NCBI GenBank assembly: GCA_964615185.1
Contig: CAZTOS010000050.1
Coordinates: 1-16,776, forward strand
Source of the DNA: an uncultured Thermococci archaeon
GTDB lineage: Archaea > Methanobacteriota_B > Thermococci > Thermococcales > Thermococcaceae
Direction: 5' to 3'
DNA: 16,776 nt
Made by a program: the position numbers and the translations under genes. Each line of letters opens with the position of its first letter. Positions within the stretch are counted from its first letter, which is position 1. This document shows, piece after piece, positions 1-11,273 of the stretch. Under the pieces are notes generated by a model that saw only the letters and a program-made list of their open reading frames with translations, made no database searches and had not been told where the DNA came from.

Positions 1-194
1 GCCTCCACTTTACCCAAAGCATAGGGAGCATACTTTGCCCTTACACCATCCGTAGGCACTTTGGGTGCCAATATGCGATACTCCACATTTTTGGGCACGA
101 GCCTGTACGGCAAGCACAGTCCAAATCCATAAAAACTCCTACCATGGTAATCCGTAAAGAGGGCTCTATCCGCCGTTAAAACTATTCTCACCAT
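1..194 (-). CDS. N-terminal part of an archaeal B12-domain-like radical SAM protein, probable GDGT ring synthase (Grs) family; truncated by the window edge
   Basis: Not in the ORF track. ATG at 194-192, 1 nt after the upstream stop, and open to the window edge: MVRIVLTADRALFTDYHGRSFYGFGLCLPYRLVPKNVEYRILAPKVPTDGVRAKYAPYALGKVE. The IVLTAD..L.TDY...F.GF and A.YAPY.L.K.E pattern matches my recollection of Grs-family N-termini. The rSAM motif lies outside the window. Confidence 0.7.
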   Translation of the reverse strand, partial: MVRIVLTADRALFTDYHGRSFYGFGLCLPYRLVPKNVEYRILAPKVPTDGVRAKYAPYALGKVE

Positions 195-195
195 C

Positions 196-1578
196 TTAAC
201 AACTTCCCATCATAGATTTTGCCATATCTATTGCCCTCGGGATGGCCCTCCTGAATATGAAGCCTTTCCTTGAAATTATATCCTTAATCAGATACGATGG
301 GCGCAGGTAGAAGGACAGGTATGCCTTCTGGAGCATTCTCTTTATCTGCTCGGAAGTGAAGTTCTTCAACTTCATTACCGGGTCCAACGTTGTGTATTTC
401 CTCCAGTTGAACGTCAGGATGAGATTCTTCGACAGGGCGTAGCTCCACAGCCTCGTTCCGGGGTAAGGGGTGGCTATCGTGAACTGGGCGTATTCCACCC
501 CTACCTTCTTGGAGAACTTTATGGTCTTTTCCACGTCTTCCCTTGTCTCCTCTGGAAAACCTATGACAAAGGAACCCAAAGCATTGAGCCCGTGTTTTTT
601 CGCCTTCTTGACAGCCGCCATTGACTGCTCGGGGGTTATTCTCTTGCCGATGAAGTCAAGTGTTTTCTGGGAGCCGGACTCGATTCCGAAATAAACGGTA
701 TGGCAGCCACCGGCCTTCATAGCCCTGGCAACCTCGTCCGTGAAGAGGTCAACCCTTGAAGAGGCCGACCAGGAGATATCGAGACCCTCCTCCCTAATCC
801 TTTTCGCAATCCTTATCGCTCTCGGCCTGTTTAACGTGAATGTATCATCGAGGAACTCTATCTCCCGAATTTTGTACTCGTCGTGGAGTATCCTCAGCTC
901 CTCGATGACCCTCGAATCGCTATGCCCGCGCCACCTCTTGCCAAACTGCAGGGAGGAGGAGCAGAAAACGCAGTCAAACGGACAGCCCCTGCTCGTCATC
1001 ACGGTTCCAAATCTGACACCATCAGCTTTATACTTATCCATTGGGAGAAGGTCGTAAGATGGCATGGGAATGGTATCCACATCTTTTATCAAGGGCCGGG
1101 GAGGGTTGTTCCTTACCTTCCCTTCCATGTTTATGCTCAGCCCCAAAATGTTCGATGTGTCTTTCCCCCTGTCAAGGGCATCGATGAGCTCCCTGAACGT
1201 TATCTCGCCCTCTCCCCTCACTATGAAGTCTATGTAGGGGCATTCCTTGAAGGTTCTCTCCGGGACAAATGTAACGTGGGGACCTCCCATAACAACCTTC
1301 ACGTTCTCGTTGTGCATCTTCGCGATTTTTGCAACTATGCAGGCATCGGGCATCATGGAAGTCGTTGATGTTATTCCAACGACGTCGGGGTCGTACTTCT
1401 TTATTATCCTCTCTACGTCCCTGTAGGTGTAGTCCTCCGCCAAAGAATCAACGATTCTCACGTCGTGCTCGTCCCTAACCATAGATGCCAAATATGCCAA
1501 ACCGAGGGGCGGGCCCGTCGTGCCGATAATCGCTTTAATAGCGCTGATAGTCGGGGGCGAGATGAGCAGGATTTTCAT
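196..1578 (-). CDS. Cobalamin-binding (class B) radical SAM methyltransferase, candidate GMGT methylase (Gmm-like)
   Basis: N-terminal B12-binding domain (PPLGLAYLAS, DVVGITS, GGPHVTF, GEGE). rSAM motif TSRGCPFDCVFC, followed by FLDDTF, GIESGSQ and TPYPGT. RBS AGGTGA upstream of the ATG. The class is secure; the Gmm assignment rests on gene context. Confidence 0.85.
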   Translation of the reverse strand: MKILLISPPTISAIKAIIGTTGPPLGLAYLASMVRDEHDVRIVDSLAEDYTYRDVERIIKKYDPDVVGITSTTSMMPDACIVAKIAKMHNENVKVVMGGPHVTFVPERTFKECPYIDFIVRGEGEITFRELIDALDRGKDTSNILGLSINMEGKVRNNPPRPLIKDVDTIPMPSYDLLPMDKYKADGVRFGTVMTSRGCPFDCVFCSSSLQFGKRWRGHSDSRVIEELRILHDEYKIREIEFLDDTFTLNRPRAIRIAKRIREEGLDISWSASSRVDLFTDEVARAMKAGGCHTVYFGIESGSQKTLDFIGKRITPEQSMAAVKKAKKHGLNALGSFVIGFPEETREDVEKTIKFSKKVGVEYAQFTIATPYPGTRLWSYALSKNLILTFNWRKYTTLDPVMKLKNFTSEQIKRMLQKAYLSFYLRPSYLIKDIISRKGFIFRRAIPRAIDMAKSMMGSC

Positions 1579-3025
1579 TTAAATTCACCTTCTGAACAAG
1601 CTTCTCCCACTCCTCCTTCATAAGTATGCACCCGGGGTCAGGGGCGAGGATATCACCATAATACGCGTACGCCCTCGCCCTGCAACCGCCGCACACGTAC
1701 CTGAACGGGCAGTCCCTGCAGGCGTAATCAAGTGCATCCCTATCCCTCAGTCTGTTGAAGACCTCGCTGTTCTTCCACACGTTCACGAAGCCGTCCTTTA
1801 TGGCGTTGCCAACCTTAATGGGTATGAACACGCAGGGCTGAATGTCTCCGTTGTGTTCTATTGAGCAGTAAATCCTCCCCGCACCACAGCCGCCTATGAA
1901 CTCTGTCAGTGCCTTCGCCGCTCCACCAAACTCTTTCGGTATCTCGATCTCGGCAAAATGAGTTGGCGAAATCTTATCACCCGTGCCCCTGTCCATTGCG
2001 GTTATTGATATTCTCGCGTATGCCGGACAGGTGGAGAAGATCTGTATATCTCCCTTCTTCCATTCGTTGTAGAGGTACTTCATGAGCTCTTCCCTCTCCT
2101 CGGGAGTGAGATCTTCCCTGATTATCTCCTTCCCCCTCCCCGTGGGTATGAAGTTGAAGACTATGAACCTTCTTACCTCCAGTTCCCTCGCGAGCTCCAC
2201 CATGTCTGGGATGTAGTCAATGTTCTCGTGGGTTGCCGTCGTTGCTATGCCGACGCTGAGCCCTGCAGCTTTGGCGTTCTTTATCCCCCTGATTGTGGCA
2301 TTGAATGCTCCTTTAACCCCCCTGAACTCATCGTGAATTTCTGGGGTTGGTCCGTCAAGGCTTATCTCAACGTACCTTATTCCGACCTTTCTCAATCTTT
2401 TCGCAACCTTTTCGGAGATGGGAGTTCCGTTCGTGGCGACAGAGAGGTAGAAGCCCTTCGAGGCGGCATACTCAGCAACCTTCCAGAAGTCCTTGTTTAT
2501 CAGGGGTTCCCCTCCAGAGAAGGATATGGCGGCAACACCAGCCTCGTCAAGCTGGTCAACGATGTTCAGCTTTTCCTCAAGGGTCAGCTCATCGGGTGCC
2601 GGATACGGCGTGGCGTTGGCGTAGCAGTGCTTGCATTTGAGGTTGCACTGCTTCGTAAAGTCCCAGACGACCATAAAAGGCGCAACCAGCCTCTGGGGCT
2701 TCGTTATTCCATACTCCGCTATGCTCCTGAGTACCACGGCGAAGCCCTTCCTCATGTAGGGGTCTTTGAGGTGGCTTTTAATCGTCTCAGGGCTTGCTCC
2801 GAACTTCTCGGCGCCCTTCTCAAGGGCCTCACCGACGATTTTTGCGTGGAGCCTTTCCCTGATGCCTCTTGGTTTTAAAACCCCAGCATACACGCCAAGG
2901 GATTTCTCAAGCTTTTTGACCTCTGTCATCTCCTTTAGGATGAAGCTCGCAAACCTGTTGTCCATCACTTTATGGAGATAATCTATTATTTCCGCTTCAT
3001 TTAAAGCCGCCTCTGATGTTTTCAT
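1535..3025 (-). CDS. Radical SAM/SPASM protein with N-terminal extension, candidate GMGT (H-GDGT) synthase (Gms-like)
   Basis: APFMVVWDFTKQCNLKCKHCYA (CxxxCxxC), SFSGGEPL, and SPASM cysteines (GCGAGRIYC...PC, CRDC...CGGCRARA...DPGC), with about 115 aa of N-terminal extension. Start moved from 3040 to the ATG at 3025 because GGTGA sits 5 nt upstream of it. Overlaps the next gene by 44 nt. Confidence 0.85.
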   Translation of the reverse strand: MKTSEAALNEAEIIDYLHKVMDNRFASFILKEMTEVKKLEKSLGVYAGVLKPRGIRERLHAKIVGEALEKGAEKFGASPETIKSHLKDPYMRKGFAVVLRSIAEYGITKPQRLVAPFMVVWDFTKQCNLKCKHCYANATPYPAPDELTLEEKLNIVDQLDEAGVAAISFSGGEPLINKDFWKVAEYAASKGFYLSVATNGTPISEKVAKRLRKVGIRYVEISLDGPTPEIHDEFRGVKGAFNATIRGIKNAKAAGLSVGIATTATHENIDYIPDMVELARELEVRRFIVFNFIPTGRGKEIIREDLTPEEREELMKYLYNEWKKGDIQIFSTCPAYARISITAMDRGTGDKISPTHFAEIEIPKEFGGAAKALTEFIGGCGAGRIYCSIEHNGDIQPCVFIPIKVGNAIKDGFVNVWKNSEVFNRLRDRDALDYACRDCPFRYVCGGCRARAYAYYGDILAPDPGCILMKEEWEKLVQKVNLNENPAHLAPDYQRY

Positions 3026-3059
3026 GAGAGTCACCTTCATATCTATGTAAAAAAATTTG

Positions 3060-3077
3060 CATATTTAAGCTTATCGC
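3060..3077 (-). promoter_or_regulatory. Putative BRE/TATA promoter of the radical SAM operon
   Basis: Minus strand reads GCGATAAGCTTAAATATG, a purine-rich BRE-like element plus TTAAATA, about 37 nt upstream of the ATG at 3025. Confidence 0.55.
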
Positions 3078-3100
3078 ATTGCTCCCCTATGTTTATAATT

Positions 3101-3658
3101 TCACATAATTTCATGCTTTTCTAATTCCTCAAGGAGATTTTTTACAGCAAAACAGATGTCTTCCTCATTCCTAGCTCCAGCAACAACAATTTTGCCTGTA
3201 GTAAAGAGAAGCACTGTTAATCTTGAACCCCTGACTCTGTAAATTATTCCAGGAAATATCTCCGGCTCATACTCACAGTTAGGCAGAGTTAAAGCAATGA
3301 TGTCTAAGTCCAGATTCCCCATGTTTAGGTCTCCAGAAGCTACTAGGTTTTGAATTTCAATTGTTGGGTCATCTGAAAACTTAATTCCCAATCCTTCCAA
3401 TTGCCTTACAAGTGTTTTAACTGCTTCCTTTACTTCCTCACTGTTCTTTGCTCCCGTACACACCAGCTTTCCAGTATCAAAAATTAAAAAGGTAGTTTTG
3501 GGCCTTTCAAGCTTGTATATTGCACCAGGAAAAATGCTTGGATTGTATTCGACATTTTTTAAGTTGCTGACAACTTTTTCTAAATCAATCTCTCCATGCA
3601 GGTCTATTGATGCGACAACATTTTCAACTCTGACTTTAACTTTGCTTAGCACATCCAT
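3101..3658 (-). CDS. tbp: TATA-box-binding protein, divergent and likely a paralogue
   Basis: Two direct TBP repeats: ENVVAS..YNPSIFPGAIY..FLIFDTGKLVCTGAK and QNLVAS..YEPEIFPGIIY..LLFTTGKIVVAGAR. Start placed at ATG 3658 because GGTGA lies just upstream. Confidence 0.95.
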   Translation of the reverse strand: MDVLSKVKVRVENVVASIDLHGEIDLEKVVSNLKNVEYNPSIFPGAIYKLERPKTTFLIFDTGKLVCTGAKNSEEVKEAVKTLVRQLEGLGIKFSDDPTIEIQNLVASGDLNMGNLDLDIIALTLPNCEYEPEIFPGIIYRVRGSRLTVLLFTTGKIVVAGARNEEDICFAVKNLLEELEKHEIM

Positions 3659-3768
3659 CCTATTCACCAGGTATATATTCACGTTTGGCACCTTAACTTT
3701 ATCTAATACATGTGTTAAATAATTCTCTAATGGTGTAGTTAGGGAGTGCTGAAGAGATAGTATCTCCC

Positions 3769-4035
3769 ATGATGCTCCCTCTCAAGGCTAAGCTCCTGCG
3801 CCACAAGAATACATTGGTAGTGATTGCTCAGAGACTACAACAAAAATATGTGAAGGAGGAAATAGAGTATGTGAATGAGCGGAGTTTGGAAATGCTTAAG
3901 GCTCTCAGCGAGCAAGTTGTGGAGGTTTCTGTAGAGCTTGCTTTGATAGGAGAAGTCCCAAAATCTTCAATCCAAGGATTCAAACCTCGCGTGGAGATTA
4001 TGCGACTGTCACAAAAGCATTTTGTCTGCAAGTGA
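3769..4035 (+). CDS. Small hypothetical protein or gene remnant
   Basis: 88-aa ORF divergent from tbp and followed by a T-rich tract (4036-4056). It has no clear RBS, and an in-frame upstream ATG (3730) is cut by TAG two codons later. The segment EYVNERSLEMLKALSEQVVEV resembles the C-terminal helix-strand of DUF257/KaiC-like proteins. Confidence 0.35.
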   Translation: MMLPLKAKLLRHKNTLVVIAQRLQQKYVKEEIEYVNERSLEMLKALSEQVVEVSVELALIGEVPKSSIQGFKPRVEIMRLSQKHFVCK

Positions 4036-4146
4036 ATTTTATTTCAATTCTTTCATTCAGGCCCCATTTTTTGGCGTTAGAGTAAGATTTAAATTTCCTT
4101 AGGGTTTGAAGTATTAATGGAGGTCCAATTGAGAGGGTGAGCATGA

Positions 4147-4782
4147 ATGAGTATTGCTAAAAATGTTTGGGATGATGTTAAGCCTGGTGAAAGTGTGCTG
4201 ATCGAGCATTCTTCGACGGGAGCTCCTTACTTGGGGCTCCTGCACTTGATAAATTGGGCCAAAGAGAAGGGGTACCAAGTAGTCGTTGACGACGTCTTGG
4301 ACACTCTTTACTTGTACAAGACTCAGATGAAGTTGGCTGGATTTGACGCGAGCATCTTGGATGATGTTAAAGCCATAAAGTTTGGGGGAAGGATAAAAGT
4401 TGGCCAAGTTGTTGGACGGCTTCAGATTAAAGAGCCGGTAATTCGAGAGCGAGAGTATGGACAAATTTTTGCGCCCCTCTCGGGGGGGGCGGTAGTTAAT
4501 CCTGTTCTGGGCATTGAGAAGCTCTTCTTGCTTGCCGAGTCTAAGAGGGAAGTGTTGAGTACTGTGAATGGACTCCTCTCTTTCGTTGGCGACAAGCGAA
4601 GGATTACATTTTATTTCATCAACGCTGACTTGTTGAAGACTGCTGTTTCAGAAGCCTTGCCCCTGCTAGAAGAACTAGCCAGCACGGTAGTTAGGGTTGA
4701 CATGGAGGGAAAATCTCACAAGTTCTCGATAGTGAAGTCAGTGAACAAGGAACTCTTAGGACTCACGTTTATCCTGCCTTGA
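4147..4782 (+). CDS. DUF257 family protein (Thermococcales-expanded, RecA/KaiC-like fold)
   Basis: KPGESVLIEHSS, VVVDDVLDTLYLYKTQMKLAG, VLGIEKL, VGDKRRITFYFINADLL and LPLLEELASTVV are typical of DUF257. RBS GAGGGTGA, with a TTTAAAT TATA-like element near 4088. Confidence 0.85.
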   Translation: MSIAKNVWDDVKPGESVLIEHSSTGAPYLGLLHLINWAKEKGYQVVVDDVLDTLYLYKTQMKLAGFDASILDDVKAIKFGGRIKVGQVVGRLQIKEPVIREREYGQIFAPLSGGAVVNPVLGIEKLFLLAESKREVLSTVNGLLSFVGDKRRITFYFINADLLKTAVSEALPLLEELASTVVRVDMEGKSHKFSIVKSVNKELLGLTFILP

Positions 4783-4794
4783 GGCAATCTCTCT

Positions 4795-5110
4795 TATTTT
4801 TGGCCGCAGTAGTTTCTTTCAGAAAACAAGGTATTCTGTCATCAAAGCAGGTTGTTAAAGCATCCCAGAATCCCTCATGCGGTTTCCCGTGCTTGTACCT
4901 CTCCTTGGAAGAATCATAAGCATCAGCGGCGTAAAAATCCCGGAACCTTTGGGCAGGAGTTCATTTAGTGCCAACGTAAGGTGATTCCTGTAGTTTTTTC
5001 AGTTCGAGGTTCGTGGGGGTTGAGTAGTAATGCCGAAGGCCTGCGTGAGGGACAAATTGTAGTATTATCCAAAGAGGAGTTGCCGGGATTTTGGGTTTTC
5101 AGTTTTTCTC
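4795..5110 (-). pseudogene. Degraded IS5-like (DDE) transposase relic
   Basis: Minus-strand fragments broken by stops and frameshifts: QLLFG*YYNLSL, then LRHYYSTPTNLELKKLQE, then ELLPKGSG / DFYAADAYDS, then ERYKHGKPHEGFWDALTTCFDDRIPCFLKETT. These resemble, in the correct order, the N-terminal helix, the AD.AYDS catalytic motif and the Y..R...E..F..L...FGDR motif of IS5-type transposases. Boundaries are approximate. Confidence 0.5.
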
Positions 5111-5245
5111 TCTGATTCTAAATCTGGCAGAACATCCAGCTACGCTCTCAAGCTCTGGATTCTCTCTGTGGGAGCATAAGAATCATCTGAAAGAATTCAG
5201 CAAAAATCCTAAATAAAAGTTACTGTAAACCCCTCCTCACACTTA

Positions 5246-5260
5246 GTAAAGTTTTTAAAT
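5246..5260 (+). promoter_or_regulatory. BRE/TATA promoter of the RND operon
   Basis: GTAAAGTTTTTAAAT, a typical Thermococcales promoter, 50 nt upstream of the ATG at 5311. Confidence 0.7.
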
Positions 5261-5273
5261 GCTAACTATCTAA

Positions 5274-5297
5274 AACTTTCGGAAATTTCCGAAAGTT
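5274..5297. promoter_or_regulatory. Perfect 24-bp palindrome, probable repressor operator
   Basis: AACTTTCGGAAA|TTTCCGAAAGTT is a perfect inverted repeat with no spacer. It lies between the TATA box and the GGAGG RBS, over the expected transcription start. Confidence 0.8.
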
Positions 5298-5310
5298 GGA
5301 GGGAAATAAA

Positions 5311-7569
5311 ATGCTCAGAAGATTATCAAAGATCATTGTTGAATACAGAATTGCCTTTGGATTGGTGGCAATATTCTTGCTCATCCTTTCATCTTACGGT
5401 ATAACAAAGCTCAGCTTTGAGAGTGATACTTCGAAACAGCTTCCTGAAGACTTGAAGGCGGTGAAGGACTATTATGCACTTCAGGATGAATTCCAAAGCG
5501 GAGACGCCGCCATCATTATAGTGAAGGTTAACAGTATAGAGGAAGGAGGCGTTTATGACATAAGGGATCCGGAAGTAATCCAGGCAATCCACGAGCTTGA
5601 GCAGAGGATCAGACAGCATGAGTATGTAACAAACACAATGAGCATTGCTGATATCTACCTTCAAACTCTTGGGCGATTGCCGAAAAACGAAGATGAGGTG
5701 AAATTTGTTCTGAACATGCTCCCTGAGGAAGCCAAACAAGGATTGATAAGCTCTGACTATAGAACAACAATGATAGTGGTGACCTTAAATAGAGAGAAGA
5801 ACTCCAACGTCCTGCGGAGGGTTTATGAAGAAATCCAGAGGGATATCAATGAAGTAAAGTTTCCTAAAAACGTTGAAGTTGTTCAAACTGGAACTGTTGG
5901 GATTGCATATAGACTTTTGAAGCTTTTGCAGAGTGATTTAAATAAAACTATGGGAGTTGCTTTTCTGATTGTCGTTTTGATTCTACTCTACTTCTATCGC
6001 TCTCCAATAAAAGCAGCGATACCCCTTATTCCCCTCATCTTTGGGGTTACAATGACTCTCGGATTTATGGGGCTTTTAGGAATTCCCCTTGATATGGCAA
6101 CTACAACCGTCGGTGCCATGCTGATAGGTATGGGTATTGATTATGGTGTCCACGTAACGAACAGATATTACGAAGAGAGAAAGAAGGGAAGAAGTATTGA
6201 GGATGCTGCAGAGGAGGCAATAGCTGAAACAGGCAAAGCCCTGCTTGGAGCTGCGTTAACAACCATAGCTGGATTTGCAGCACTAAGCCTCTCCATATTG
6301 CCCTCACTGCAGAGGTTGAGTGCTGCTTTAATAATGGGTTTGAGCTTGGCAGCATTGAACGCTGTGGTGATAACTCCAGTAATCATAATTCTGGAGGAGG
6401 ACTTAAGGAAAAAGCTCACTGGTCATTATGAGATTCCAGAGATTAGAGCTCATTCGGGAGTTGTTTCTAAGGTTTTTGAAAGCCTTGGAAGAACAGTTAG
6501 GGATCATCCAAGGAGCTTCCTGGCATTGGTGCTTATTATAACCCTGTTCTTTGGGTACGGCTTGACCAAAGTGACTACTGAGGTCAGGCTTGAGAAAATG
6601 ATTCCAGAGGGAATACCGGAGATAGAGGTGATGAAAGACGTTAGGTATGAATTCGGTGGTCAAGATGAAGTGGATATCTTGGTGAAAGCAGATGACGTTA
6701 GAGAGCCAAGTGTTGTTAGAGCCATTTATCGCTTTGAGCAGAGCGTTAAGGCAGATTCTTACTACAACAACGTCTTCGAAGCCAACAGCCTCGCTGACAT
6801 TTTGATTCAGAAGTATGGCTACATCCCTAATGATGAGGAGAAGATAAAGAAAGCTCTGGAGGAATATCAGGGGCAGAGTTTGGTGAACTCGGATTACTCA
6901 ATGGCAGTGGTTCAGTTCAAGGGAAACTTCATGGGAGTAGAGCAAGAGCAGTTTGGGAGAATAATGGAGTATTTTGAGAATGAAGTTAAAAATGCAGATT
7001 TTCCACCGGGGGTGCAGGTTTCTTTGGCTGGAGAGGCTCATTTGAGTTATGTTTTGGGTGGCTTAACGAATCAAGAACTTGGCAAAATTTCAACCTATGG
7101 AACGCTTTTTGTGCTTATCATAGTCATTCTACTCTTCAGAAATGCAAAGCTCTCAGCAGCGATGGTAATGCCGATGTTACTTGGTGCATTATGGACTGTC
7201 GGCTACATGGGCTGGGCTGGAATTCCTTTTAACCAAACACTGGCTGGAATTATCTCAATGATTGTAGGTTTGGGAGTAGATTACGGAATGCATCTAACCC
7301 ACAGGTTCATGGAGGAGTTAAATGAAGGGAATCCACACCCAATAGTTATTGCTGTCAAAAGCGTTGGCCCTGGAATCTTAATTGGTGGTTTAACAACTGC
7401 TGGTGGATTTTTGGCTCTGCTGGTTGGTCAGCTAACCCCAATCCACGATTTAGGAAAAACTTTGGCTATTGGTATATTTTCATCAATGTTTGCTGCTTTC
7501 CTTGTTACCCCTGCTTTACTGCAGATATTTTACGGTAAACAAATAAAGAAAAGAGGTGGTGAAGAATGA
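5311..7569 (+). CDS. MMPL/RND superfamily transporter (hydrophobe/amphiphile efflux-3, HAE3)
   Basis: Two homologous halves, each with 1 TM, an extracellular loop and 5 TM. Motifs GMGIDYGVH and GLGVDYGMH, plus TTIAGF and TTAGGF. Start is ATG 5311 after RBS GGAGG rather than TTG 5296. Confidence 0.92.
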   Translation: MLRRLSKIIVEYRIAFGLVAIFLLILSSYGITKLSFESDTSKQLPEDLKAVKDYYALQDEFQSGDAAIIIVKVNSIEEGGVYDIRDPEVIQAIHELEQRIRQHEYVTNTMSIADIYLQTLGRLPKNEDEVKFVLNMLPEEAKQGLISSDYRTTMIVVTLNREKNSNVLRRVYEEIQRDINEVKFPKNVEVVQTGTVGIAYRLLKLLQSDLNKTMGVAFLIVVLILLYFYRSPIKAAIPLIPLIFGVTMTLGFMGLLGIPLDMATTTVGAMLIGMGIDYGVHVTNRYYEERKKGRSIEDAAEEAIAETGKALLGAALTTIAGFAALSLSILPSLQRLSAALIMGLSLAALNAVVITPVIIILEEDLRKKLTGHYEIPEIRAHSGVVSKVFESLGRTVRDHPRSFLALVLIITLFFGYGLTKVTTEVRLEKMIPEGIPEIEVMKDVRYEFGGQDEVDILVKADDVREPSVVRAIYRFEQSVKADSYYNNVFEANSLADILIQKYGYIPNDEEKIKKALEEYQGQSLVNSDYSMAVVQFKGNFMGVEQEQFGRIMEYFENEVKNADFPPGVQVSLAGEAHLSYVLGGLTNQELGKISTYGTLFVLIIVILLFRNAKLSAAMVMPMLLGALWTVGYMGWAGIPFNQTLAGIISMIVGLGVDYGMHLTHRFMEELNEGNPHPIVIAVKSVGPGILIGGLTTAGGFLALLVGQLTPIHDLGKTLAIGIFSSMFAAFLVTPALLQIFYGKQIKKRGGEE

Positions 7570-10316
7570 AGAAATCTGGAATGTTATTGGGTGTAATGGT
7601 TATCATGGCAACCTTCAACATAGCATTGGCTCAAGACACTGTGCTTTTTGAGGGATATTTAAATAAAGGAGATGCAATCCTAGTTGGTCCCCTTATAATC
7701 ACGCTGAACGATGTTCAAAAGGACTATCTTACGAATCAGTACAAGGCAATGTTCATCATAATGAAAGATGGAAAAATAATCAATGCCAACTACACTGTAC
7801 TCTACATTCCGAACCCCAGCAGGATGCAGGAACTTTTAGCCGATCCGGAGTTTCTTGCGGCAATGGCGGAAACTCTGGGCTACAATCCCAATGATCCGCT
7901 TTCATACGCCCAATTTTTGGCTTGGTTGGCTACGGCTTCACCTGAAGAAATTGCAGATGCAGTTTTTAAGACAATTAATGAGCATCCAGAATTGGGTATA
8001 AACAAAGAAGACCTCCTAATGCCAATACGAATTCCACAATTTACGTACATTGGCGAAAATGAGACGATTGAACTCAATGTTGATGGTCAAAAAGTTACCG
8101 TAACTGCACTTGACACATACCCAAATGGAGCAAGAGTGAGTATAAGTGGTCCTTATGAGTGGAAGGCATCCATGATACCAGCACTCATAACTACAAGTAT
8201 AGAAGCCCCTAAAAGTGTGAATCCGGGACAGGAATTTACCGTAAAAGTTCACTTAAAGAATGAAGGTGCGTTGAAAGCAAAATATATAACTGTCATGGTT
8301 TCTCCAGTTATGCTGAATACCGGAAGTAGTGAGAACCAGAACTCCCAAAGTTCAATGGGACAGGCATTAGCTCAGGCTTTGAGCCAAAGTGGAGTTGTGC
8401 AGTCTGCTTTAATGCCAGTAAACACCTCAATAAAATACATCGAGTATCTTGACGGAAAGGAAAGTGAAACGCTGGAATTTAAGTTTAAAGCTAATGAGAA
8501 TGCCCAGCCTGGTGTTTATCCCCTATATGTAACTGTAATTTATTTCTTTGGTGTAGGACAAGATGTTCAGCAGATGCAGAGCTTCAATTTTGTTGGAATT
8601 ACTGTGGCGAGGGATAGCGATGCATCGTTCGTAATTGAGAGTATTGAAAAGCCAAAAATAGTTCATCCTGGAGAGGACTTTGAAGTTAAGATAAAACTCA
8701 GGAACATGGGAGGAGATACTGCCAAAGACTTTTTAGCAACAATTGAGCCTAAATTAAATATCGAAGAGCAGAAGATTCAAAATGCCCAGCTCTCTGGGGA
8801 TTTGCCAATGGAGACAAAAACACCAATTCTTGTAGCTAATAAGACTGACCAGTACTATAGGGCGATTGTTAGGCCGAATGACGAAGTCGAACTTACTTTT
8901 AGGCTTCATGTGAGCGAAGATGCAGAGACTGGTAGCTATCCCCTAACCCTAAAGCTCACCTACTATAGTGGAGATTCAAAGGATTCAAAGAGCCAAAGTT
9001 TTGAGTTCTCAGTCCAAGTGCTTAGAAAAAGGGAGGCATTCATAGAAATTGAAAGCATTGACATGGAGCCAAAGAAAATTGAACCTGGAGATGAGTTCAC
9101 CCTTACAATAAAGCTCAGGAACGTTGGAGAAGAAAATGCGAGGGCATTTGCACTGAAAATAATCCCCACCCAAGTTCCAGTTCAGGGAGAAATTAAAAAA
9201 GTTGATCTTTCATCGCTCCAAAATCTGCCGATTCAAGGGAGCCAAGCCATAAGTGAGAACCTCCAGGAGGCATTAAACCAAATATTAAAAGAGCTTGCAA
9301 AGAGAAATGTTGATGCATTCTTACCTGTTGGAGAGGACAACGTGAAGTATGTTCCAGAGATTGCTCCAAATCAAGAGGCAACGTTGAGGTTCCATTTAAA
9401 GGCAAACAATAAACTTGAGAATGGAATTTATCCATTGAGAATAGGCATTGAGTACCTTTCATCTCCAGATGATTCAAAAATTAGTGATGAGCGCTTGATT
9501 GGCATCAATGTTCTCGGAAAGGAGCAGCTCATAATTTCAAAGGTCTCAACTTCACCGAGCAGGGTTTACCCAGGAACGCATAACATTGAGGTAAGCTTAA
9601 GCGTTGAGAACATTGGAAGCGGAACTGCGAGATATGTGCTTCTTATTCCGAAGCCCCAAAGCCCATTTGAGCTTAGCGACACAAGCGAGCAGATAATAAA
9701 CCTCGGAACCTTAAGGCAGGGAGATTCAGCAAATGCTGTCTTTAGGATTAACGTTAATGAAGATGCAAAAGGAGGAAGTTATGAGCTTCCCGTGGAGATT
9801 CAGTATAAGGATTCTCTTGGAAACAGCCAGAAAATCATGTTGAATGTTCCAATAATAATCCACGAAAAGCCAAAGCTTGTTGTTGAAAATGTTCGCTTTG
9901 ACAAAACACCGAGGCAGGGGAAGAAAGTCAAAGTTTATGTCAAGGTCAAGAACGTTGGCGGAGAGCAGGCAGAGAATGTTATCATTGAGGGAGTCGTTAA
10001 AGCCAGCCAGCCATTTACACTGACTAAAAGAACCGACTACATAGGAACCCTCGATCCTGGAAAGAGCGGAGAAGGGGTCATAGAGCTGAGCATAAACAGG
10101 GACGCGATTCCAAAGGAGTATACAATCCAAGTTAGAATCAGGGCTGTTGGAGACAAGGAAAGTGGAGATGACAACGTTTATGTTTTTGAAGATAGCGTAA
10201 AAATACCAGTTCAGGAAAATACAAAGCAAGCACATACTTTGAAGTATGCCGGAGTTGGAGTTGGTGTTTTAGTTGTTTTGGCAGTCCTTGCTACTTACAT
10301 GAAAAGACGCAAGTAA
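7566..10316 (+). CDS. COG1361 S-layer-domain / CARDB-like repeat surface protein
   Basis: Signal peptide (MKK...ALA), five Ig-like repeats (V.PG.EF.V...L.N.G...A ... A..G.YPL), and a C-terminal TM helix followed by KRRK. ATGA overlap with the RND gene indicates translational coupling. Confidence 0.85.
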   Translation: MKKSGMLLGVMVIMATFNIALAQDTVLFEGYLNKGDAILVGPLIITLNDVQKDYLTNQYKAMFIIMKDGKIINANYTVLYIPNPSRMQELLADPEFLAAMAETLGYNPNDPLSYAQFLAWLATASPEEIADAVFKTINEHPELGINKEDLLMPIRIPQFTYIGENETIELNVDGQKVTVTALDTYPNGARVSISGPYEWKASMIPALITTSIEAPKSVNPGQEFTVKVHLKNEGALKAKYITVMVSPVMLNTGSSENQNSQSSMGQALAQALSQSGVVQSALMPVNTSIKYIEYLDGKESETLEFKFKANENAQPGVYPLYVTVIYFFGVGQDVQQMQSFNFVGITVARDSDASFVIESIEKPKIVHPGEDFEVKIKLRNMGGDTAKDFLATIEPKLNIEEQKIQNAQLSGDLPMETKTPILVANKTDQYYRAIVRPNDEVELTFRLHVSEDAETGSYPLTLKLTYYSGDSKDSKSQSFEFSVQVLRKREAFIEIESIDMEPKKIEPGDEFTLTIKLRNVGEENARAFALKIIPTQVPVQGEIKKVDLSSLQNLPIQGSQAISENLQEALNQILKELAKRNVDAFLPVGEDNVKYVPEIAPNQEATLRFHLKANNKLENGIYPLRIGIEYLSSPDDSKISDERLIGINVLGKEQLIISKVSTSPSRVYPGTHNIEVSLSVENIGSGTARYVLLIPKPQSPFELSDTSEQIINLGTLRQGDSANAVFRINVNEDAKGGSYELPVEIQYKDSLGNSQKIMLNVPIIIHEKPKLVVENVRFDKTPRQGKKVKVYVKVKNVGGEQAENVIIEGVVKASQPFTLTKRTDYIGTLDPGKSGEGVIELSINRDAIPKEYTIQVRIRAVGDKESGDDNVYVFEDSVKIPVQENTKQAHTLKYAGVGVGVLVVLAVLATYMKRRK

Positions 10317-10336
10317 TTTCTTCATTTTCCTTTTTT
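10317..10336 (+). terminator. Oligo-T terminator-like tract
   Basis: TTTCTTCATTTTCCTTTTTT directly after the stop codon. Confidence 0.5.
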
Positions 10337-10376
10337 AGAAAACTTTAAACGATCTTAGTGATGATCATGTTTGTAG

Positions 10377-11273
10377 GTGAAGACGATGAGAATTGTTAAG
10401 ATAGTACTTGCAGTATTGCTTATTTTGATAGTGTGGCTTGGATATTTAGGATATTCTGCCATGCACATAAAACCGGAAATTACAGCTGAGTGGGGATATG
10501 TGGATGACAAAACAACTGAGGTATGGCTTCACATATATCTGGATAAAAAGCTCCCAATTTCAGGTAGTGTTAATGACGTGACAATTGAGTGGGCTGGAGT
10601 TAAAATTGGGAAAATTGAAAATATGAGGCTCGGCTTTATGCAGGATAAAGTCGATGGTGTTTTAGTTCTTGACAACTACAAAGCAGTTGAAGCTTTGAAA
10701 AGCCACATCAAAAATGGAGAAAATAGCTATGCAAAAATAGTCATGAAAATTTCCGTCTTTGGGATACCGCTCTTTAAAAAGGAATTTACTCAGCAAGCTA
10801 AGACAGATATACTGTCTCAGTTTAATATAGAGACTGAAAGCACAGGAGATTTAATTAAAACGCCTGCTGTAGAGGGAATTTCTTCGAGATGGGGACCAGT
10901 TGGTGACAAATACATTACAATATACAGTGATATTAAGCTTTACAATCCTAACAGCTTCCCGATTCCAGTATCTGGAGTGGAATTCAATGTCAATATAGAT
11001 AATTATCCCGTTGCCACGGGTAGTTTAGTTGAGAATACAGTGATTCCAGCAAATGGATATGGGGTTGTTAAGGTTAAAACGCTCCTTGATGCTTCCATTC
11101 TACCAAAAGTTTGGGCTGAGCATATAAAGCGTGGAGAAGAAAGTGATGTTTCGGCAGTTATTTATCTAAAAGCTAACGTCCTCAATAAGGAGTTTAGGCT
11201 TAAAGTTGCCGACATTGAGAAGAAAATCAAAACCAACATAATTGAGCAGATAAATTCAATGCTCCAGATTTAA
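10377..11273 (+). CDS. Membrane-anchored protein with two LEA_2 (WHy) domains
   Basis: N-terminal TM anchor and two repeats (WG.V....T....I.L.NPN.FPIPV..V ... HIK.GE.S). The YNPNSFPIP motif is characteristic of LEA_2/WHy. The start may be ATG 10386 (AGGTGA upstream). Confidence 0.8.
   Translation: MKTMRIVKIVLAVLLILIVWLGYLGYSAMHIKPEITAEWGYVDDKTTEVWLHIYLDKKLPISGSVNDVTIEWAGVKIGKIENMRLGFMQDKVDGVLVLDNYKAVEALKSHIKNGENSYAKIVMKISVFGIPLFKKEFTQQAKTDILSQFNIETESTGDLIKTPAVEGISSRWGPVGDKYITIYSDIKLYNPNSFPIPVSGVEFNVNIDNYPVATGSLVENTVIPANGYGVVKVKTLLDASILPKVWAEHIKRGEESDVSAVIYLKANVLNKEFRLKVADIEKKIKTNIIEQINSMLQI

Follow-up and report, generated by a model that had tools for sequence, protein, structure and literature searches.

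What would a run of tightly packed radical S-adenosylmethionine (SAM) genes at a contig end do to the membrane lipids of a hyperthermophilic archaeon? The locus occupies the first 3,040 positions of a stretch of 16,776 nucleotides (the window), which is the entire contig C50 of an uncultured Thermococci genome (G000; 2.26 Mb, 138 contigs, 95.6% complete) placed among the Thermococcaceae genomes of our search. A reading made from the sequence only had proposed a cassette that bridges, methylates and cyclizes the core lipids, namely GDGTs (glycerol dialkyl glycerol tetraethers) along with their cross-linked counterparts, the GMGTs (glycerol monoalkyl glycerol tetraethers). We find that the locus extends beyond the contig end and that it is best explained, with a probability of roughly 0.68, as a four-gene tetraether-lipid tailoring cluster that would cross-link, methylate and cyclize GDGT, likely to more than four rings. 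The observations behind the earlier proposal are borne out and its interpretation is essentially right; its novelty was overstated, and the gms-gmm-grs core (GMGT synthase, GMGT methylase and ring synthase) is a known system that has already been published. The increment is small: a Thermococcales gms-gmm-grsA cluster has received, by insertion, a gene of GrsB type that is otherwise known from vent Thermoplasmata and other archaea.

Gene layout and the assigned enzymes

Three genes lie tightly coupled on the minus strand, as had been read from the sequence. Their open reading frames (ORFs) span 3040-1535, 1578-196 and 194 to beyond base 1, with an overlap of 44 nt between the first two (1535-1578) and a gap of a single nucleotide (position 195) before the third. 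The features of the locus, including the TATA-binding protein (TBP) gene upstream and a promoter block with a likeness to the transcription factor B recognition element (BRE) and TATA box, are the following.

1535 to 3025, minus strand: gms (gene 1), GMGT synthase of the Thermococcus guaymasensis type; 496 aa from the ATG at 3025, 501 aa from the ATG at 3040
196 to 1578, minus strand: gmm (gene 2), GMGT methylase, a B12-binding radical SAM protein of 460 aa, assigned by identity to the T. guaymasensis enzyme and by Pfam domains
1 to 194, minus strand: 5' 64 codons of gene 3, a GrsB-sister B12-radical SAM gene; the whole gene encodes 529 aa (P0198; metagenome contig L144, 4300-5889)
227 to 268, minus strand: 42 bp from the 3' end of gmm, present a second time after gene 3 as an insertion scar (L144, 4226-4267 and 5910-5951)
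196 to 226, minus strand: C-terminal tail of gmm, which probably stems from the donor and arrived together with gene 3, judging from tail likeness
3062 to 3076, minus strand: BRE/TATA-like putative promoter core of gms-gmm-gene 3, from its sequence and its conservation in five copies
3031 to 3175, minus strand: 145-bp block of TBP 3' end, promoter and leader; an 89% copy precedes the GrsA-type gene on contig C38
3101 to 3658, minus strand: extra TBP paralog (Pfam TBP) directly upstream of the cluster, one of three TBP genes in the genome

Gene 1 is a radical SAM/SPASM protein with an N-terminal extension, as the sequence-only reading had described it: the Pfam domains Radical_SAM (residues 128-284) and SPASM (385-445) are preceded by about 120 unannotated residues. 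It is 91.8% identical to the Gms of T. guaymasensis (Tg-Gms, WP_062369926.1; 435/474, E 0.0), falls into the same 90% cluster and shares 44-45% identity with the Gms of Pyrococcus furiosus and T. celer. Both its similarity and its length lie within the published bounds for Gms (E ≤ 1e-80 to Tg-Gms, at least 400 aa; PMC11214058), and residues 8-120 align without gaps to the N terminus of Tg-Gms, which accounts for the extension of about 100 aa (COG4001) expected of this family. The radical SAM cysteines C127, C131 and C134 and the SPASM cysteines C380, C398, C436, C439, C445, C448 and C466 are invariant in 5/5 aligned rows. In a tree of 46 rows, gene 1 joined Tg-Gms, apart from an outgroup of two AhbD/NirJ-like paralogs from locus L019 that stood in for Methanosarcina barkeri AhbD itself; the other members of its group are Thermoplasmata, Methanoxibalbensis and Syntrophoarchaeum sequences. 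The ATG at 3025 is the likelier start, with a GGTGA ribosome site 6 nt upstream, and the database representative (P0004) likewise has 496 aa. The 44-nt overlap arises from a nonconserved C-terminal tail of gene 1; Tg-Gms ends sooner and overlaps gmm by 4 nt. Expression of Tg-Gms in T. kodakarensis yields GMGTs with a 40-fold bias to isomer 0b (PMC11214058), and in vitro activity and three [4Fe-4S] clusters have been described for another Gms (PMC11186832). The genome also carries a second GMGT synthase of the P. furiosus/T. celer type (C4:49381-51060), 82% identical to the Gms of both species; the GMGT-0a/0b output of the two types reportedly differs.

Gene 2 was proposed to be a B12-binding radical SAM protein, and the Pfam domains B12-binding (residues 13-131) and Radical_SAM (195-355) are both above cutoff. 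Its identity to T. guaymasensis Gmm (Tg-Gmm, WP_062369928.1) is 94% (94.1%; 432/459), within the same 90% cluster, and it lies within the bounds set for a Gmm, which are an E value of 1e-65 or lower to Tg-Gmm, a length of 400 aa or more and both domains. The same identity and the length of 460 aa set it apart from the related enzymes Cgm, Pgm and Ted; longer Thermococcales homologs are 33-38% identical, and published work gives 34% identity between Cgm and Tg-Gmm and restricted the search for Cgm and Pgm to proteins of more than 495 aa (bioRxiv 2025.10.20.683597). Tg-Gmm adds one to three methyls to GMGTs and prefers GMGT over GDGT (PMC11214058). The Gms and Gmm assignments made from the sequence hold, with 92% and 94% identity to exactly the characterized enzymes; PDB sequence searches returned no entry named Gms, Gmm or Grs.

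Gene 3 begins with MVRIVLTADR, as claimed, and only its first 64 codons lie on the contig. Its remainder is absent from the genome assembly, where tblastn matched only the C50 fragment and a gene on contig C38. The metagenome contig L144 bridges the gap, with 99.98% identity to C50 over 4,493 nt and 99.99% to C38 over 9,944 nt, and carries, in order, the TBP paralog, promoter, gms, gmm, gene 3, the 42-bp repeat with the old gmm tail, a promoter copy and a grs gene. The end of C38 agrees with this order: a gmm 3' tail is followed by the copy of the 145-bp block (89%) and then by the grs gene (C38:19337-20962). This fourth gene is a radical SAM gene of GrsA type in the TK0167 clade, 84.7% identical to TK0167, the GrsA of T. 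kodakarensis, and 89.4% to T. guaymasensis Grs. TK0167 makes GDGT-1 to GDGT-4 (bioRxiv 2025.10.20.683597).

Identity of the third gene

Completed from L144, gene 3 encodes a B12-radical SAM protein (P0198); the 64-aa fragment in the window gave zero Pfam and NCBIfam matches. The proposal of a Gms, Gmm and Grs-like cassette stands as to all three families, and needs amending in that gene 3 is a sister of GrsB and not a Thermococcales GrsA. Its best match among characterized proteins is Sulfolobus acidocaldarius GrsB (Q4JC22; 39% identity over the full length, bit score 371), which has the same domain order; identities to S. acidocaldarius GrsA (Q4J8I0; bit score 195) and to TK0167 (243) and T. 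guaymasensis Grs (253) are 32% and 35-36%, respectively. We take Q4JC22 to be Saci_0240 (GrsB), Q4J8I0 to be Saci_1585 (GrsA) and BAD84356.1 to be TK0167, a mapping that fits the genome positions. The roles of saci_0240 and saci_1585 follow PMC13459092. With E values of 1e-126 to GrsB and 1e-59 to GrsA and a length of 529 aa, P0198 belongs to the Grs family as bounded in a 2023 preprint (E ≤ 1e-20 to GrsA or GrsB, at least 400 aa; 10.1101/2023.10.20.563219).

From 438 candidate Grs-like sequences, 193 remained after dereplication, and trees were midpoint-rooted, with weak deep branches. The gene-3 clade was sister to the GrsB crown clade in three of them, with FastTree support of 0.935 (193 rows), an approximate likelihood ratio test (aLRT) value of 87 (70 rows) and ultrafast bootstrap/aLRT values of 96/95 (39 rows). 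Supported branches separated gene 3, at 32-36% identity, from both GrsA groups (Saci_1585 and TK0167). A first reading of gene 3 as the ortholog of T. guaymasensis grs was ruled out at 36% identity; the gene on C38 is the true ortholog.

The CX3CX2C motif of gene 3 is intact. A structural model of P0198 (predicted local distance difference test score of 94) has an N-terminal Rossmann-type domain, a radical SAM barrel and C-terminal helices, which is the Grs architecture, and its fold matches include MgmA, TsrM, CysS, OxsB and TokK, as well as the B12-free MiaB/RimO. The Pfam B12-binding model misses P0198 together with S. acidocaldarius GrsA and GrsB and weakly matches 36/79 family members. 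In thermoacidophiles, close homologs of GrsB have been proposed to carry an N-terminal coiled coil (bioRxiv 2022.08.15.504015).

Two close relatives of gene 3 come from genomes with a published gene complement. It shares 83.8% identity with RLF52741.1, an accession next to that of the Gms of Thermoplasmata B28_G1 (RLF52742.1), and 78% with Alkanophaga volatiphilum MDF2956654.1; the B28_G1 and Alkanophaga genomes are counted among 76 encoders of GrsA, GrsB and Gms (10.1101/2023.10.20.563219; Dataset S2 of PMC11214058). The order grsA-gms-gmm-gene 3 occurs in loci L150, L151 and L167, and likewise in L145, there with two small ORFs between. Adjacent accessions and gene order suggest that the gene-3 clade is very probably what the authors of the 2023 preprint call GrsB.

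Predicted lipids and competing explanations

The four enzymes would act on GDGT-0 supplied by tetraether synthase (Tes), whose gene is present in the genome on contig C59 and scores over the family cutoff. Gms would bridge the two biphytanyl chains by a C-C bond to give mainly GMGT-0b, as the 92%-identical Tg-Gms does in vivo; a radical coupling mechanism with three [4Fe-4S] clusters is a proposal from the literature. Gmm would add one to three methyls from SAM via methylcobalamin, with GMGT as the preferred substrate, as demonstrated for its 94%-identical counterpart. The GrsA-type fourth gene would add up to four C-7 cyclopentane rings, as demonstrated for the 85%-identical TK0167, and gene 3 would put C-3 rings on already ringed lipids, like GrsB. 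We predict methylated GMGTs that carry more than four rings. Identity makes bridging and methylation by genes 1 and 2 near-certain, and C-7 rings from the fourth gene are very likely. C-3 rings from gene 3, to which phylogeny and gene context point, are probable and form the weakest step. The Tes gene itself (C59:3267-6080), an open frame of 1,074 aa, is interrupted in frame by some 450 codons, which are probably an intein.

Several observations weigh against this four-gene reading, the first of which concern gene 3. Its clade is separate and long-branched and sits beside, not inside, the clade of characterized GrsB, to which it is only 39% identical. Ile or Val replaces the Arg before the first radical SAM cysteine, next to the Fe-S motif, in 18/20 clade members at least 78% identical to gene 3 (a count that includes the Ile of gene 3 itself), and the same Arg is kept in 180/193 tree rows. 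Genes of this type often stand directly after gmm (L150, L151, L153, L154, L167, L168 and L181), homologous B12-radical SAM enzymes of the pathway (Cgm, Pgm and the desaturase Ted) do change chemistry (bioRxiv 2025.10.20.683597), and the literature covered contained no activity test of a gene-3-clade member. With genes 1, 2 and 4 acting as stated, gene 3 might therefore follow a chemistry other than that of canonical GrsB, such as ring formation confined to GMGT or its methylated form, a further C-7 cyclization, or some other radical reaction on the chain, for instance desaturation or another kind of ring. We consider this unlikely in view of the sister position to GrsB (96/95 support). A GMGT-only role is not required by the clade, some members of which lack gms or gmm nearby (L146-L149, L158, L166 and L170), and the lipids of V. 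distributa back the grsB calls of the preprint authors in the case of a different divergent clade (10.1101/2023.10.20.563219).

The next observations concern lipids and expression. T. guaymasensis, which has grs, gms and gmm, is listed with GMGT-0 only, and the Thermococci entries of the same lipid table all have at most four rings (PMC11214058), so that possession of the genes does not guarantee the lipids. The RNA runs X19 and X20 contain only 0.09-0.14 of the words, a share that bears no claim on expression. Thermococci are also described as making no cyclized GDGTs or traces of them (bioRxiv 2025.10.20.683597), and the insertion of gene 3 looks recent, its scar still being 90% identical. 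Gene 3 and the ring synthase, whether recent, poorly expressed or cobalamin-limited, might then contribute little in vivo, leaving mainly GMGT-0 and some methylated GMGT-0. We think this quite improbable, given that the gene 3 frame is intact and translationally coupled to gmm, that the clade entered two Thermococcales loci independently (L144 and L145), a hint of selection, and that the ring index of T. aggregans comes near 1 in late growth (bioRxiv 2025.10.20.683597).

The last point against the four-gene reading is that the join of C50 and C38 is carried by a single contig, L144, possibly from the window's own sample, with partial support from other runs. The layout could be an artefact of assembly or of a mixture of two strains, one with gms-gmm-gene 3 and one with gms-gmm-grsA: the metagenome-assembled genome (MAG) breaks exactly here, and the named Thermococci MAG locus L001 has gms-gmm-grsA without gene 3. 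This explanation is highly improbable. L144 covers the full region as one contig, and among contigs of four public runs compared with window positions 1-5400, one of which runs may be the window's own source, gene 3 extends past base 1 in 4/4 and the tail-promoter joint (3142 to 227) is present in two (X1 and X2). Depths in run X1, a rough measure, are 16.8 for the gene-3 piece and 23.3 for the joint, each near the single-copy depth of gms/gmm (25-27) and not summing to it.

A heme (AhbC/D, NirJ) cluster or one for ribosomally synthesized and post-translationally modified peptides can be dismissed, since the top NCBIfam scores (AhbD, TIGR04053 and NirJ2 for gene 1; HpnJ, BchE and ApyD for gene 2) lie far under the cutoffs, which neither gene reaches for any NCBIfam model, AhbD likeness is a known look of Gms (PMC11214058), identity to Tg-Gms and Tg-Gmm is 92-94%, and, as the sequence-only reading had it, no short ORF for a precursor peptide was found between the TBP gene and gene 1.

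Putative promoter, probable insertion history and relatives of the cluster

A single TATA promoter had been proposed for the operon. The BRE/TATA-like block at 3062-3076 is a putative promoter of gms-gmm-gene 3, as proposed; since the fourth gene has a copy of the block in front of it, a single promoter would serve genes 1 to 3 at most. Its 14-nt core and the T-tract that follows are unchanged in five copies, which come from 4/9 loci scanned, and YTTWAWW is expected by chance at about 0.03 matches per 11-nt slot. A scan for sigma-70 promoters and hairpin terminators was discarded as inapplicable to archaea; its promoter count was at chance (7 found, 8.0 expected). In L283, from a genome of the same genus, the same TBP-promoter-leader block stands before a deep-branching gms (7036-8550; 44% identical to gene 1) followed by grsA, a case of gms swapped behind one promoter.

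The TBP paralog upstream of the cluster shares 53% identity with the canonical copy, whose acidic tail it does not have; the other TBP genes of the genome are at C35:2209-2757 and C103:4098-4634. More than one TBP match was present in 20/99 genomes of the order (one match being partial), and a gms-like gene occurs in 16 of these 20 genomes versus 31/79 others, counts in which kin are not independent. In G000, G004 (L283) and L002 an extra TBP gene stands directly upstream of gms; in G085, G102, G110 and G066 such a gene is no more than about 17 kb away from gms or gmm, in a variable region of metal, redox and ABC genes. These paralogs retain the conserved core without the acidic tail. The TBP paralog may possibly be a dedicated initiation factor for these regions, a role on which the literature held nothing among the matches listed. 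Around the TBP gene on C35 (177-13658) lie several ORFs with the highest GC content at third codon positions (GC3), which probably mark another acquired island.

Across 923 ORFs of the genome, the median GC3 is 0.40 and the 99th percentile 0.62, compared with 0.62-0.67 for gms, gmm and grsA and 0.49 for gene 3, values that fit two donors, one for gms/gmm/grs and another for gene 3. The two copies of the 42-bp gmm repeat that flank gene 3 are 90% identical, and the old gmm tail follows the second copy. L001, with the order gms-gmm-promoter-grs, would show the locus as it was before the insertion. In the window, gmm ends in a tail more like those that precede gene-3 homologs (L181, L150 and L168) than like those of L001 or Tg-Gmm, from which we infer that gene 3 was inserted into the gmm 3' end and brought the donor's gmm end with it by recombination. 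By this account, and judging from the repeats and GC3, gms-gmm and grsA would have come from a higher-GC donor and the promoter block would have been duplicated; gene 3 would have come in afterwards, its source a vent archaeon that had gmm and grsB as a pair. Entry by recombination within the 3' end of gmm would leave gene 3 translationally coupled to gmm, and the locus is a clear example of operon extension via recombination into a gene's 3' end. Only tentatively do we suggest that a Thermococcales lineage built, by stepwise horizontal transfer, the full kit for methylated GMGTs with at least five rings: GrsA, a GrsB of the vent type, Gmm and two types of Gms that differ in the isomers they yield.

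The closest known system is that of T. guaymasensis, in which grs, gms and gmm lie together in one cluster (Garcia et al. 2024, PMC11214058). Its three enzymes (WP_062369925.1, WP_062369926.1 and WP_062369928.1) are 89%, 92% and 94% identical to those described here, and it shares the gms/gmm overlap and the same small ORFs after the cluster. It differs from our locus, which has the order gms-gmm-gene 3-grsA, a duplicated promoter and the added GrsB-sister gene, as well as an upstream TBP paralog and the second gms on C4. The Thermoplasmata B28_G1 cluster has the same four functions in the order grsA-hbs(gms)-hgm(gmm)-grsB (10.1101/2023.10.20.563219, section 10; Dataset S2 of PMC11214058); gene 1 is 70% identical to its RLF52742.1, and here too a grsB-type gene directly follows gmm. 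The host is a Thermococcaceae archaeon in our case, and the gene order and the stepwise, recent assembly set our locus apart.

Across the 99 genomes of the order, a gms-like gene (E ≤ 1e-70) is present in 47, the T. guaymasensis type (at least 88%) in only 6, gmm (at least 68%) in 17 and a Grs-like gene in 43. A full-length gene 3 match (E ≤ 1e-95) was found in 1/133 genomes of the class (G106), G000 itself holding only the fragment. We set the G106 copy aside as probably misbinned: it lies on a 2,950-bp contig with a GC content of 0.41 that is 83% identical in DNA, along its whole length and including the neighbouring gene, to the Thermoplasmata-type locus L151. Over 14.7 kb, L145, a metagenome contig, is colinear (about 88%) with L288, which encodes proteins identical to T. 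guaymasensis Grs and Gmm. L145 holds a gene-3 homolog (90%) inside an insertion that measures about 1.9 kb and lies at another site. Sequence comparison marks L145 as a second, separate acquisition of the gene-3 clade by a Thermococcus-like locus.

More than four rings require GrsB, and the 76 published genomes with GrsA, GrsB and Gms include none under a Thermococcales name and three named only "Euryarchaeota archaeon" (Dataset S2 of PMC11214058). The literature searched, which comprised titles and the starts of abstracts, with paywalled papers and supplements outside its scope, gave no Thermococcales GrsB or GDGTs with five or more rings; the SI Appendix of PMC11214058 and the bioRxiv supplements may already show Thermococcales GrsB homologs or their clade placement. 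The full kit for cross-linking, methylation and multiple rings, which gene 3 likely completes in this archaeon, is known from other vent archaea and was not reported for Thermococcales in the literature covered. If gene 3 works as a GrsB, Thermococcales would be added to the candidate producers of the methylated GMGTs with rings in vent sediments, which would bear on lipid proxies and on the precursors of ARN acids, highly cyclized GMGTs being thought to yield ARN acids at vents. The vent "GrsB" clade has so far been assigned by phylogeny only, and a Thermococcales-hosted gene 3 would offer a test case in the genetically tractable T. kodakarensis.

In several Thermococcales loci, namely L144 (7715-8364), L288 (11637-12414), L145 (9056-9825) and L283 (10185-10983), the lipid cluster is followed by two small ORFs (about 75-110 and 137-147 aa), the larger of which has no Pfam match. 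Near them lies what we take to be a GbsR/MarR-like ORF and, in L144, also an ORF that is presumably CDP-archaeol synthase-like. On the other side of the cluster, and divergent from it, positions 5296-11273 of the window (plus strand) encode an MMPL/RND transporter, a CARDB/Ig-repeat surface protein and an LEA_2 protein, and the same genes are present in L001.

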